64,000 nt of DNA from Escherichia coli. GTDB taxonomy: Bacteria; Pseudomonadota; Gammaproteobacteria; Enterobacterales; Enterobacteriaceae. This document shows, one piece after another, positions 37,001 through 43,000 of the stretch. Made by a program: the position numbers. How positions within the stretch are numbered: the first letter of the stretch is position 1; every line of letters begins with the position of its first letter. The stretch lies in the NCBI RefSeq assembly GCF_051903065.1, contig NZ_CP178439.1. One strand, written 5' to 3'.

Positions 37001-40000
37001 GACGTCATCGTCTGCGCGGAAATGGACGAACAGTGGGGATACGTCGGGGCTAAATCGCGCCAGCGCTGGCTGTTTTACGCGTATGACAGGCTCCGGAAGA
37101 CGGTTGTTGCGCACGTATTCGGTGAACGCACTATGGCGACGCTGGGGCGTCTTATGAGCCTGCTGTCACCCTTTGACGTGGTGATATGGATGACGGATGG
37201 CTGGCCGCTGTATGAATCCCGCCTGAAGGGAAAGCTGCACGTAATCAGCAAGCGATATACGCAGCGAATTGAGCGGCATAACCTGAATCTGAGGCAGCAC
37301 CTGGCACGGCTGGGACGGAAGTCGCTGTCGTTCTCAAAATCGGTGGAGCTGCATGACAAAGTCATCGGGCATTATCTGAACATAAAACACTATCAATAAG
37401 TTGGAGTCATTACCGGAGAATTGTATCATTAACAGTCTAGTTCTAACGACTACCACTTTTAAGTATGTATTGAGCCAGTTTTATATTCAGGCACACCATA
37501 TTGCACTCTAGCTCTTTCATCATTCTTGAAGAACTCTTAATTAAGTATTCTTCAAGTGGGCCAGCATATGCCCCTGATGTCACGATCGTTAGTTGCGTAA
37601 GAGGATGAGTCAAACTCTCAATGCCCTTCAGGATGTCATTCTGGACAGCAGCAATATAAACAGGCGAAGCCGCAATCAAATATTCATCATTCGGGCTGGA
37701 CTGCATTAACTGGCTTATAGTTGCGCAACGGTTATGCTTACCTAGTGATTTTGTGATGGCTTTCCACCAGAGATCATGCCTGAATGGTACTTGATGAAAT
37801 GTCGCCTCGTAAGAGGGCACCCGATCTCGACTATTTAAAAACCCCATCCCGGCAGAGATTATCCACAACTCCAGATTTCTGGTTGAGTTTAAAATTTCCT
37901 TTGCCGTAGACCAGTGATTACCTGAATACAAGGACAATGCCGGTACCGCCTGATTACTTCTGGCGTCGTCTACAATGTTACTCCAGGCATATGCTGCGTC
38001 GTCCGGGGTTTGTTTTGGATCTATGTCCAATGTCGGCCAGACGTGGCCCTGATGATTCTTGCCCTTTGTACAGGAAGTGATTAAGTGTACTGAGCGTTCA
38101 GAGAACATTATCTTCCTTACATACCCATAGAACAGCTTTCTAAGAACGGTGGGCTCGCCTGAAAATTACAAATCAGCCCCTTTCACGGCATCATTTTGAT
38201 TCTTCGCGTCTGCCCCCAGTAAGATGACCGGTTTTCTGCATGACAGTGTTATTCCTAACAAACGCAACACAAAACCACGCCAGCCAGAGCAAATTTTTTC
38301 ATTTGCTGCGTAAAGCCTATTGTTTTCTCTTTTAAGCTTCGCCCACTCGTTACAGAGGGTAACATCATCAAGCGCTGTTATATGCTTCGCCTCACCTTCG
38401 ACGATAACGGTATGGATACCGTATGCTGTAAATCTCATACTATTTTCCAGAACCCAGTTGCGGTATTCGTCGAGTCCACCTTCGGAACCGGTAGCTCTGC
38501 GCCACATTTCAATTTGCTTGTGTGATGGGTCAAGTGTACTTGTCATTGAAGCCTCGTCTCAGCGATAACGCTTGAAATAGCCCGCTTTGGTCATCATGAA
38601 ATTAGCCATCTGACTGGCGATTTGATTGTATCTTACTCATAGTGCCCTACCTATAGGTTAAAAAGGGGCATTTTCGCTTTATAGCGTGTTCAGCAGCATC
38701 AATCCTCCCAAGAAAGGCTGGCTTATTAAGCCGGTCCATCATTTTCTGTATATCTCTCATCAATTTTTATATCCGCCCTGGAGTGCACCGTTCAAGCACA
38801 CCGATTAGGCAGATAGTCACTAGTTAACTCTTTACTAGTGACTAAATTCCATTGATATACGTGACAACGTCACGTCATGAAAGCTTATAAATGCCTATTT
38901 TTCATACAATGGGATTTAATTAGGAGTAAATCCCATAGGCTTACATAAGGATGACAATTAAAAGCGTTAAATATCAACCAGATAGAATGATTACCCCCAA
39001 TTAATGGGCTCATCACATTATTTCACTGGCTGGGGTTATTGCTGGCATATCTGAAAGTGCTAATATGTTAGTCATTAGTAATTAGTAAAGCCTTTACTAA
39101 ACGCGTTTCTACGTAAATTCTATAGGTTTTATAGTGTCCTACCTTTGCTCAAATCAAAATGTTCTGACATACCAAAATGGAGTGTAAAATGACTCAAAAC
39201 CAGGGTTCTGAGCCAGTACCGGCGAGCCGGACAGGGCAGCTCATCAGCGCCCGGGATATGGCCATGCAGAAATTCGAAGAAGGGATGCGGTTAATCTCGG
39301 AAGCGTCGGAACTGTGCGGTCTCTCTCTCTTCACCAGCAGAATTATGCAGCCCAACGCATTTGGTCTTCCGTCGTCACTGGATCGCACCATCGAGGAGGG
39401 GCGTAAGGAAATTGACCGTAAAACGTGGAAAAGGCTCTTTGAAGAAACAGGTATGGACCGGTACTGGAACCATAAGCAAAAAGAAGCCTTTAACGAATCC
39501 CTTCGTACGGATCCGCCCGTCGCTTCCCTGGAGATTGTTAAGGGAACATTACAGCATGCACTGGCTAACAGACGAGACACCCTTGCAGAAGGTTTCGTTG
39601 ATGTTCTCAACAAGCTTGACCGAAGTTTCAAAAGCAATGCCAGGCAATATACAATGCCAAAAAAGCTTGTTCTTCGGGGGATTTTTCCTGGTGTGAACGT
39701 GCTGAGGTACAACGGTTTCTCGCAGGACAATCACTTTTGTTTACGCGACTTTGAGAATATTGTATGCATCTGTTCTGATACTCCAACACCTGCAACCGGC
39801 GGTGGGCTGAGTATGGTCGACAGGCTGACGGCCATGAGAAATACAGAATTCACAGGCGAGGTCAGTGATGAGAATGGCTGGCGGTGTCGCCTGTTTGAGA
39901 ATGGAAACGTTCATATTTGCATCGACAGTATCTCGCTTCTGAATGCTCTGAACGATCTTATCAGCATATATTTTGCAAACCAGCTTCCGGCCGCAGGAAA

Positions 40001-43000
40001 AAAATGATGATTGAAAATGATAAAGAAAAAAGCCTGAACGATGCTACCCCGCCAGAGGTGCAGAATGACATCCGCAGCGAATCCACTGAAAAATCAAAGG
40101 AAATGGGTCGTTCAAGGTACTCATCTATCGCGATGATCGATTACTTCAATGCAATCGAACGTCTGTGCAAAGAGAAAGAAATTAACCCGGAAAATATCGA
40201 TCTGAGCTTCAAAGTTCACTGGCTCAGAAACGCTGTTGGCGGCTCGTTTGCAAGGTCACAGGAGATGTTCGCGGAGTACCAGAAGTATGTTAAAGAGGTT
40301 CCTGAAGAGGCCCGTTACCTGGATATACCCGATGAGGTAAAGGTTGCACTCGGCGATATTATCTCGTACATCACCTGGCACTACCGTAGAAGCTATACCG
40401 CAATACAGAATGATAGTGTTAAAAAAGCTGAAGCACGTAGCATGCAGCTGGAGGAGGAGGTAACGCAGCTGTTACAGCGGCTTGAGCAAAGCGCTACCGA
40501 TATGGATGAGCTGAAACTTGAGAATCAGGCACTACAGGGTCGATTAGAGATCCGGGACAGTACCGTCAAGGAGTTAGAAACAAGGCTGAATGTTGCCGAA
40601 GCAGAACTCGAAACCTGCCATCACCAGTTAGATAGCACACGGCATGAATTGAGCCTCGCACAGCAGTCAAATGACTCACTCTCCCAGCAACTGGCTGAAC
40701 GTAAAACAGAGATCGCTGGTCACCTTGAATATCAAAAAAAGCTGAACGAAGAGATCAACACGCAGCGTTCTGATAACGCCGGTCTTTCCAGACAATGCGA
40801 CCAGTTAAGTCAGACTGTGTCAGATACAAAGGCAGAGAGGGACAGGTTTGAACAGGAATTGATTGCTGCACAGAACCTTTGTACTGAGCTGAAAAGTGCA
40901 CTGTCCGGGAAAGAGGGTGACCTGGTGGCGGTGAATGCCGAGCTTACTGAACTCCATAAACTAAACGAGTCGCTGAGCGCCGACCTGAATAAAGTAACTT
41001 TGGTCAGCCAGGGCTATGAAGCGGAAGTGGCTGAACAAAGCAATGAACTCAAAACGCTCCAGGCCAAAGTAATGAAGCTGGAAGCTACCCTGGAGGCGGA
41101 GAAAACAATCTCAGAATCCCTAAAAGGCACCATTGATACATTAACTGGTGCAATGGCAGGGGGAGGTACTGGAAAGTCAAAACAGCCGCGTAGCAGAAAA
41201 ACATCATGATAAATGAAGCCAGGTTGATACACTTCTCTGCATCCCCTGGCACATAAGAACTTCTGCGGACATTCAGCCCGTCCGCAGGAGTTTTCGTCCT
41301 TCAGTCAACAAATGCACTACCTTTTTTGAGTCTCCACTTTCCAGAGCAGAAAACACGTTACCGATTCTACCAACAGCTTGTATCTGAGTGATAACCCCAG
41401 TCTTGTAATCATCTAGGATCCCTGACAGGAAAGCGTTCAGTTTTGTCTGTTCGCTTAGCGAAAGCATGTAGGACATTTTTTCTCCATTTTAAGCAGGTGT
41501 GTCAGTTGAAAGAGGTTTGCGTGATTCTGGAAAATGAGGCAGCACCATAGTTTCAGATGCTGTGGTCGCATCCCAGTGCCACCATCCATAAGGCCCATAT
41601 TCACGGTTGTAATAATCTTTTTTGAGTTGCTTTCGGGCCAGATAAGCAGGAGTGGCCATACCAAATACTTCCATCGGGAACGGCTTATCGCTTTTTGTGT
41701 CGAGCAGGTAGAAGTCAGGGAACACCTCACTAATACTCGCATCATAACGCATGGGCTTAACGTACTGCCGGTGCTCTGCATCCAGCTTTTCTGCAACAAC
41801 CGCCTCATAGGAGGAGTCCAGAGGTATCCAGTTCTCGCTAACGTGCATCAGCACAATTTGATGAGCTCTTACAGAAGGGCCTCTGCCGGTTACCGCAGCT
41901 GGTGACGTCAACGCAAAGACAACTATTTTCGCCCCGGATTTCCATGCTGCGTACTCCGATGAAAATCGTTTCTTTACGCTATCCCAATGGACTTCTGAAT
42001 TGAAAAAAATCAGCGGTAGCCCCCCAAAATTCCGCAGGGGTAAAAATTTAAGTGGCTTCTCATGCTTTTCAGCATCGTAGCGAGGTAAAACTGACAGGAG
42101 CATGAGACGTTTATCACTCATCGCCTGTGATGAAAGACGCTGAATTTGCGACTGAGCGACAGGTTGTTTCGGGTCAGGTACACCAATGAATAAATGGTCA
42201 CCTATGCAGGCTCTGCCGGTACGAATTTGTTTAGCGGTTTCAAGCAGACGATACCGTACCAGTGAATCGTTACGTTTCCCTGCCATTTTCGGGTACCAGA
42301 CATTCAGACCAGACTCTGTCCACAAAAGACTAAGCAAGCCCAGGAGGGTCATTGAGGCCTGACCTCCTTCTGGTCGCTGAACATGGGGCAGGGGAGGCAC
42401 TTCTGATTTTTCAGGAGGATCTTTCTCTGTCATACCGATACCGAGCCTTACAGCCATATCACCTTCGGTTGTAATCCGGACCACACCACTCGCATATCCT
42501 TTCAGGCCGGTATGCCGGGCATCAAGGGAGAAGAATACACAGGAAGGATCATGCTCAATGCCCGTGTTAGCGGCTTTGACGAGAATAAAGGCATCACCGT
42601 TCGGTAAAGCACGAACATAAAGTCGCTTTTCTCCTTTTCCACGACATCCGCAGGTGATGACTGATTTTTGACCTGAGGTGTGGTGTGCCTTTTTAAGAGC
42701 CGACTGCCACCCTTTAGCAAACTCATCCTGCGTTTGAAAGTCAGGTGAATACCTTTTGACGTTTGGATCGTCGTCGTAAGCAATCATCACTGCGAATTTT
42801 TGGCTCATAGTAGTCTCCTAAACAGGAAGTTTAATATCCCAACCAGAGCAACACTTCCTGAGCGTCATACTGTTCCTTTACGCCCATGTCGCTAAAGAAT
42901 TCTTCGAAATCTGTTTCGGGAACGCAATGCCTGGACAGTTCTTGTAATGCTCGTTCTTTAGATACCGTCTCACCTTCAGCTGATTCGAAATACGTCATGG

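Follow-up and report, generated by a model that had tools for sequence, protein, structure and literature searches.

The DNA analysed here is a stretch of 64,000 nucleotides (nt) from Escherichia coli (NCBI RefSeq assembly GCF_051903065.1, contig NZ_CP178439.1), referred to below as the window, and the subject is a pair of genes on its plus strand. Gene A (39189..40007) encodes a stand-alone DUF4942 (YdiA/YgfB-family) protein of 272 amino acids, and gene B (40004..41209) a putative KfrA/TlpA-like coiled-coil protein of 401 amino acids. The two are joined by a 4-nt ATGA overlap formed by the gene A stop codon TGA (40005-40007) and the gene B start codon ATG (40004-40006), and an AGGA sequence lies 5 nt upstream of the gene B ATG, within the 3' end of gene A. 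An initial annotation of the window had described an overlapping pair here, consisting of a 276-amino-acid protein and a second protein of approximately 400 amino acids. Both open reading frames (ORFs) and their stop/start overlap were recovered at the positions given there, and the size of the second protein agrees with the 401 amino acids read from ATG 40004. The 276-amino-acid ORF also exists, from an alternative start at 39177, but it is merely the longest ORF; the start of gene A is most likely ATG 39189, which has GGAG 6 nt upstream, is the start called by the Prokaryotic Genome Annotation Pipeline (PGAP) and yields 272 amino acids, the length of the representative of a 616-member cluster. 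A 430-amino-acid ORF for gene B beginning at TTG 39917 is a mechanical extension only and was set aside in favour of the ATG at 40004. A membrane or signal segment was found in neither protein.

The locus is part of an IncHI2 plasmid backbone and is 100% identical to many IncHI2 plasmids from E. coli, Salmonella and Enterobacter. It is matched by 1176 PLSDB records (e.g. pM160133_p1, typed IncHI2A/MOBH), with identity of at least 99% in 827 of the 1176, and the N-terminal head of gene B is present in 1430 plasmids, the IncHI1 plasmid pHCM1 among them. The conserved block consists, in order, of genes for H-NS, DUF6884 (DpdC-like), a small protein, DUF4942 (gene A), the coiled-coil protein (gene B), a small protein, DUF1173, a small protein, Dcm and SNase. 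The series DUF6884–DUF4942–coiled coil–DUF1173–Dcm–SNase recurs in L002, an IncHI1-type relative, and in L003, a more distant element adjoining ter genes. Identity to the window pair is 64% (L002) and 55% (L003) for gene A, and 41% (L002) and 27% (L003) for gene B. Across relatives in this range (gene A 55-64%, gene B 27-41%) the junction between the two genes is kept at -4 to +2 nt; in L002 and pHCM1 (L021, NZ_CP029887.1) they are separated by 2 nt and do not overlap. Because both the block and its tight junction are kept in relatives, the pair is a real two-gene operon of the conserved IncHI resistance-plasmid backbone and not a chance arrangement of ORFs.

IncHI1 and IncHI2 plasmids are carriers of multidrug resistance in Salmonella, E. 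coli and Enterobacter, and sequenced plasmids with the pair number more than 1,400. Although so widespread, both genes are uncharacterised: in the records examined, gene A is named just 'DUF4942 domain-containing protein' and gene B 'hypothetical protein' or, wrongly, 'ATP/GTP-binding protein', and literature searches (on DUF4942, IncHI/TlpA, R27/coiled-coil and ydiA/leading region) returned no functional study of either. The pair is a divergent variant of a known plasmid protein type, coupled to a widespread and uncharacterised family of plasmid leading regions.

Domain architecture of gene B

Homologues of gene B form only nine clusters, all enterobacterial, and their alignment falls into five parts: a variable N-terminal tail, a strongly conserved head (~39-135), a rapidly evolving rod, a C-terminal motif kept among the homologues and a basic tail. 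Residues 1-38 are disordered. Residues ~39-109 (40118..40330, plus strand), the most conserved part of the family, form a head with a KfrA_N-like helix-turn-helix (HTH) made up of a helix (71-78), the turn GGS and a second helix (82-98); AlphaFold places helices at 41-57, 62-68, 71-78 and 82-98. The rod (residues 110-385; 40331..41158, plus strand) is predicted to be a single long helix, with canonical heptads at ~134-385 and the C-terminal motif EATLxAEKTISxSLKGTI, and in the AlphaFold model one helix runs from 110 to 384 with a predicted local distance difference test (pLDDT) score above 90 over most of its length. The last residues, 386-401 (41159..41206, plus strand), make up a basic disordered tail with an isoelectric point of 12 and pLDDT below 50, associated with a spurious P-loop-like string.

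The rod keeps a single unbroken register of 36 heptads (~250 residues, ~134-385) and contains no proline. Hydrophobic residues occupy 69% of its a/d positions against 20% of the others, a difference of 0.49 that lies beyond every one of 2000 shuffled controls (0.09 +/- 0.04, maximum 0.27). Insertions and deletions among homologues within the rod measure only 7, 7, 7 and 11 residues, lengths that read as the signature of selection on the coiled coil. The coiled coil foreseen in the initial annotation is thus borne out, and its wording 'predominantly coiled coil' is right for ~62-69% of gene B; the disordered residues 1-38 and the helical head lie outside it.

The string AGGGTGKS at residues 385-392 (41156-41179) is the sole match to the pattern [AG]x4GK[ST] in gene B. 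It stands in the disordered tail and is absent from more distant homologues, and because it fits the classical P-loop pattern it explains the name 'ATP/GTP-binding protein' given to some gene B records. This bears on the suggestion, also made at the outset, that gene B could be a component of defence systems resembling structural maintenance of chromosomes (SMC) proteins, of the Lamassu LmuB or Wadjet JetC type. Weak PADLOC matches to LmuB (E=2.4e-7) and JetC do occur, along with NCBIfam SMC matches, but these are confined to coiled-coil residues and reach 44 bits against a cut-off of 567; more generally, searches of gene B against Pfam, NCBIfam, PADLOC and PHROGs gave generic coiled-coil noise only. 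An SMC protein would carry an ABC-type ATPase head, with Walker A and B motifs, on the flanks of its coiled coil, whereas gene B has none, its only P-loop-like string being the non-conserved one described above. Nor does a partner of the LmuA, JetA, JetB or JetD kind adjoin it: the neighbours are DUF6884, DUF1173, Dcm and SNase, and gene A has no PADLOC match. The SMC-like defence reading was rejected on these grounds and is effectively refuted.

The likeness to KfrA-type proteins fared better. These proteins consist of an HTH head and a coiled-coil tail, autoregulate through repeats at their promoter and show low sequence conservation as a family (PMC7821693). Gene B has the long alpha-helical coiled coil C-terminal to its head that they require. 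In a BLASTP comparison with TlpA of plasmid pSLT, the best high-scoring segment pair fell on the HTH (LRNAVGG-SFARSQEMFAEYQ / LRNQVGGGNPTRLRQIWDEYQ, E=0.003). Profile-profile comparison (hhalign) of the gene B head with a diverse KfrA/TlpA head alignment, consisting of TlpA-like heads from eight diverse plasmids and IncP-type sequences, gave a probability of 76.6% (P=2.1e-5, score 34.1, 51 columns) and paired residues 72-123 of gene B with KfrA_N positions 28-79. The aligned segment comprises the two HTH helices with their GGS turn and an L-P-x-E-V cap at the start of the rod. In 400 permutations (200 by column, 200 by block) the maximum score was 21.5, and the reversed alignment scored 11.0. 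The similarity became convincing only once the TlpA-like heads had joined the IncP-type set. At the profile-profile level, then, the gene B head appears homologous to the KfrA_N HTH, and gene B as a whole is predicted to be a very divergent, outlying KfrA/TlpA-type protein with the same architecture and a remotely homologous head. The resemblance proposed in the initial annotation is partly supported in that sense; a match to the Pfam KfrA_N family itself does not accompany it.

Upstream region and proposed regulation of the operon

The operon is preceded by a 642-bp divergent non-coding gap (38547..39188), the presumptive promoter/operator region, which extends from a minus-strand ORF of 126 amino acids to gene A. 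Several palindromes in it are kept in the IncHI1-type relative L002, and little sequence is shared outside those blocks. The proximal one, TTAGTAAAG-C-CTTTACTAA (39082..39100), has 9-nt perfect arms and lies 89 nt 5' of ATG 39189; in L002 the same core has longer arms (GCTTAGTCACTAGTAAAG-G-CTTTACTAGTGGCGACGC) and stands ~40 nt before the start of the homologous gene. Since kfrA promoters contain inverted or iterated repeats to which KfrA itself binds (PMC7821693), this palindrome is, by analogy, the best candidate for an operator.

A second palindrome, GTGACAACGTCAC (38861..38873), recurs in other plasmid lineages as the exact sequence GTGACANNGTCAC. The homologous operons of L002, L003, L021 and L022 have it on their upstream side, and it occurs also in L006-8 and upstream of a tlpA-like (KfrA_N) gene in L014; a one-mismatch copy lies 73 nt before the start codon of the tlpA-like gene in L015. 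Intergenic sites include L002 5698-5710, L003 5576-5588, L006 1372-1384 and L014 199-211; by a rough estimate, ~0.1 exact matches are expected by chance in the DNA examined. The gap further contains a distal palindrome, TAGTCACTAGTTAA-N3-TTTACTAGTGACTA (38814..38844), with 14-nt arms that are 93% complementary, and a hairpin, ATGGGATTTA-N8-TAAATCCCAT (38909..38936), with 10-nt perfect arms that is also kept in L002. Within the 64 kb, the motif TAGTCAYTAGT is confined to this intergenic region (4 matches against 0.7 expected). Both ATAGTGYCCTACCT and CTATAGGTT occur at each end of the region (38639-38659 and 39120-39144), their relative order differing. A search of Rfam gave a sub-threshold hammerhead match only.

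At the other end of the operon, a GC-rich hairpin (41263..41287), CTGCGGAC-N9-GTCCGCAG, followed by GAGTTTTCG on the plus strand, lies between convergent genes. This hairpin and its short T-run separate the pair from a convergent small ORF and probably act as a bidirectional terminator ending the operon.

The explanation preferred here, to which a probability of roughly 55% is given, is that gene B encodes a KfrA/TlpA-type dimeric, operator-binding autoregulator or scaffold that would control the YdiA-type protein of gene A. The protein would dimerise through its rod, and its paired HTH heads would bind the conserved palindromes that lie in the 640 bp preceding its own operon. By this autoregulation gene B would determine how much of the translationally coupled DUF4942 protein is made, and it may also serve as a DNA-bound scaffold. 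The model is drawn by analogy with KfrA of RK2, R751 and RA3 and with TlpA of pSLT. Placing gene B with the KfrA/TlpA DNA-binding regulators makes for predictions that are cheap and directly testable on a defined 640-bp fragment.

A number of observations weigh against this explanation. With regard to homology, Pfam KfrA_N (PF11740) matched neither gene B (E<=0.1) nor ten head domains of its family (E<=10), while TlpA (6e-17) and R751 KfrA (4e-27) were both confirmed as members in the same test. The hhalign core spans just 51 columns, and comparison with IncP-type KfrA alone gave P=0.02 over the same segment as the TlpA alignment. When the whole gene B model was compared with the Protein Data Bank (PDB) by Foldseek, nothing was returned at E<=0.001, the best matches (E ~1) being assorted small DNA-binding helical domains that are uninformative; no KfrA structure was found in the PDB for comparison. 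A search of the PDB sequences with a hidden Markov model of the gene B head likewise gave no match. Heptad discontinuities are present in 84% of KfrA rods (PMC7821693) but in no part of the fully canonical gene B rod, and gene B is second in its operon and away from partition genes, unlike kfrA. With regard to regulation, the intergenic region yielded no promoter in a simple sigma-70 scan, and GTTTGTT-type repeat arrays, as they stand before TlpA-like genes, are absent upstream of the operon. With regard to the partnership, gene A of the pHCM1 record (L021, ~5040-5890) has an in-frame stop (…YKTNA*QFVMPKK…), which accounts for its absence from the gene table, and gene B is intact and annotated there; the combination argues against strict interdependence of the two. 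The pairing is also lineage-specific, since no coiled-coil partner accompanies the more distant DUF4942 genes. Finally, the pair lies ~50 kb or more from the nearest IncHI2 transfer genes seen, and the origin of transfer (oriT) was not located there.

The same architecture would also suit a cytoskeleton-like or segregation scaffold, in which DNA-associated filaments of gene B would aid the positioning or maintenance of the plasmid and gene B need not be a transcriptional regulator. KfrA itself is described in two reports as self-assembling on DNA and interacting with the partition proteins IncC and KorB (PMC7821693, PMC7783346). However, no par, kfrB or kfrC genes lie near gene B, and BLASTP of R751 KfrB and KfrC against both proteins of the pair showed no similarity. 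A scaffold of this kind is unlikely.

The TlpA-like relatives were themselves inspected for upstream repeats. All TlpA-like KfrA_N genes examined (L013-L020, and L012, pSLT, at 39580-39630) have upstream arrays of the GTTTGTT(T/A) type, overlapping the likely promoter, which probably serve the TlpA-like subfamily as operators and are comparable to the 9-bp iterations of RA3 KfrA. TlpA of the Salmonella virulence plasmid pSLT has been described as a temperature-sensing coiled-coil autorepressor, and IncHI plasmids are known for temperature-sensitive transfer. It is conceivable, as an unlikely speculation, that gene B is a TlpA-like thermosensing repressor whose rod unfolds reversibly, tying expression of the DUF4942 protein, and perhaps of DNA-modification genes nearby, to temperature; under the same speculation the products of genes A and B may form a new DNA-bound complex that aids establishment of incoming IncHI DNA.

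Gene A, the DUF4942 family and a possible role in plasmid establishment

Gene A matches Pfam DUF4942 (PF13708) with 92.8 bits against a cut-off of 25, over positions 2-187 of the 190 in the profile, and has no PADLOC and no NCBIfam match. The initial annotation had missed its membership of the DUF4942/YdiA family. The AlphaFold model (pLDDT 89, predicted template modelling score 0.83) consists largely of helices, with a small alpha/beta part at the C-terminus, and no solved structural relative was found for it. An exhaustive search gave 583 representatives of its relatives. Among the best 150 of these 583, 86 are stand-alone proteins of 200-340 amino acids, and about a third (46, of at least 440 amino acids) are fusions in which an N-terminal DUF4942 module is followed by a C-terminal S-adenosylmethionine (SAM) methyltransferase (MTS/N6_Mtase); gene A itself lacks the latter. 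One such fusion was located in an array resembling phage early genes.

Some databases label DUF4942 proteins class I SAM-dependent DNA methyltransferases. No Rossmann-type SAM-binding catalytic domain was found in gene A, its module corresponding to the non-catalytic N-terminal part of the fusions, so this assignment was rejected; for stand-alone DUF4942 proteins the name 'methyltransferase' has no support. Among 92 stand-alone and 46 fused relatives, W80, D187, H242 and N255 are invariant and R22 and D76 nearly so. As these residues are kept in both forms, the conservation points to a putative binding or catalytic site in the DUF4942 module itself. The most apt description of gene A is a DNA- or methyltransferase-related module associated with establishment.

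The DUF4942 family is among those most enriched in the leading, that is first-entering, regions of plasmids: in the ranking taken from Samuel et al. 2024 (PMC11541004), two DUF4942/YdiA families stand 24th and 76th for leading-region enrichment. A DUF4942 gene was found in at least 5000 of the 72,556 plasmids in PLSDB, 4652 being conjugative among the matches listed. In an IncI plasmid it lies just 5' of nikA/nikB, by oriT, and ardA and psiAB are found still further 5'; in pOXA-48 it is accompanied by hha, an antirestriction gene and ssb, near mobA-traI. The unrelated large plasmids L006-L008 carry DUF4942, DUF1173 and SNase genes together near psiA. With members in at least 5,000 plasmids, the YdiA/YgfB family of gene A is among the largest leading-region families that are still uncharacterised, and the IncHI operon offers a defined regulatory handle on it.

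On this basis the pair could form an establishment or anti-defence module, in which the DUF4942 protein acts on incoming plasmid DNA or on host systems that depend on restriction or modification and the coiled-coil protein is its partner or regulator. The surroundings of DUF4942 genes elsewhere are consistent with this, namely oriT, ardA, psiAB, ssb and antirestriction genes in IncI and IncL/M plasmids and psiA in L006-8, as is the strong leading-region enrichment of the family in the published ranking cited above. So too are the fused relatives, which are orphan-type methyltransferases, one of them from the array already mentioned that resembles phage early genes, and an IncHI neighbourhood rich in genes for DNA modification and nucleases (orphan Dcm, DpdC-like, DUF1173, SNase) as well as H-NS. 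Against it, gene A matches no known anti-restriction protein in structure or sequence and is a pseudogene in one pHCM1 record, and the leading-region location holds for the IncI and IncL/M members examined, whereas the IncHI2 pair has the ~50 kb separation from transfer genes noted above. The proposal is tentative, and it overlaps with the autoregulator explanation rather than excluding it.

Several neighbours in the backbone block are of interest in their own right. An orphan DpdC-like protein (37443-38108, minus strand) matches Pfam DUF6884 and PADLOC DpdC (E=4e-59), with no dpdA or dpdB nearby; as a lone plasmid homologue it could have a role in 7-deazaguanine DNA modification or in countering such modification. 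Directly to its left lie what we take, from ORF translations, to be an IS1-like element and a sul-type gene. The DUF1173 protein (41489-42808, minus strand) has a weak PADLOC match to PDC-S68, and DUF1173 is a predicted PD-(D/E)XK nuclease (PMC3045609). It is followed by an orphan Dcm-type C5-methyltransferase (43059-44528, minus strand; PADLOC oMTase, E=3e-206) and, after that, by an SNase-family nuclease (44662-45216, plus strand). The backbone segment is flanked within the window by resistance and insertion-sequence DNA: positions 1-36500 and ~50000-64000 are multidrug-resistance mosaics that bracket it, and their best plasmid matches carry mph(A)/mrx, ISEcp1, ISKpn19, floR, tet(A) and Tn3-family elements. 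GC content climbs to ~0.6 at 50-58 kb of the window.

Comparison with known systems

One close likeness of gene B is to TlpA of pSLT. The two are similar in size (371 amino acids for TlpA, 401 for gene B) and both are plasmid-borne in Enterobacteriaceae. Each has an N-terminal HTH head followed by a long coiled coil that starts from a conserved L-P-x-E-V helix cap, and their best pairwise similarity lies in the HTH core (LRNxVGGG...EYQ). They differ in that TlpA matches Pfam KfrA_N and gene B does not, and in that gene B has an additional 38-residue disordered N-terminal tail and, ahead of the HTH, an insertion of ~6 residues. The TlpA gene of pSLT is monocistronic; gene B comes second, its start overlapping the end of the DUF4942 gene, and the GTTTGTT-type repeat arrays that precede TlpA-like genes are lacking from the gene B operon.

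KfrA of the IncP-1 (RK2, R751) and IncU (RA3) plasmids shares with gene B the succession of a head, a coiled coil of ~250 residues and a short basic tail, which ends in ...SGGRKKT in R751 KfrA and in ...KQPRSRKTS in gene B. Inverted repeats are found upstream in both cases. kfrA is the first gene of kfrA-kfrB-kfrC and adjoins korB/incC, whereas gene B is second, after DUF4942; the kfrA-kfrB/kfrC context beside partition genes is, however, not universal in the KfrA family, and TlpA is likewise without it.

For gene A, the comparison is with the DUF4942 genes of IncI, IncL/M and IncF-type conjugative plasmids, with which it shares the Pfam family, the length class and all of the conserved residues, although these members are only 21-30% identical to it. 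The coupling of a DUF4942 gene to a KfrA-like gene belongs to the IncHI clade only and is not seen in the IncI and IncL/M members. With the DUF4942-methyltransferase fusions of phages and plasmids, which are orphan-type class I SAM methyltransferases, gene A has the whole DUF4942 module in common, including R22, D76, W80, D187, H242 and N255.

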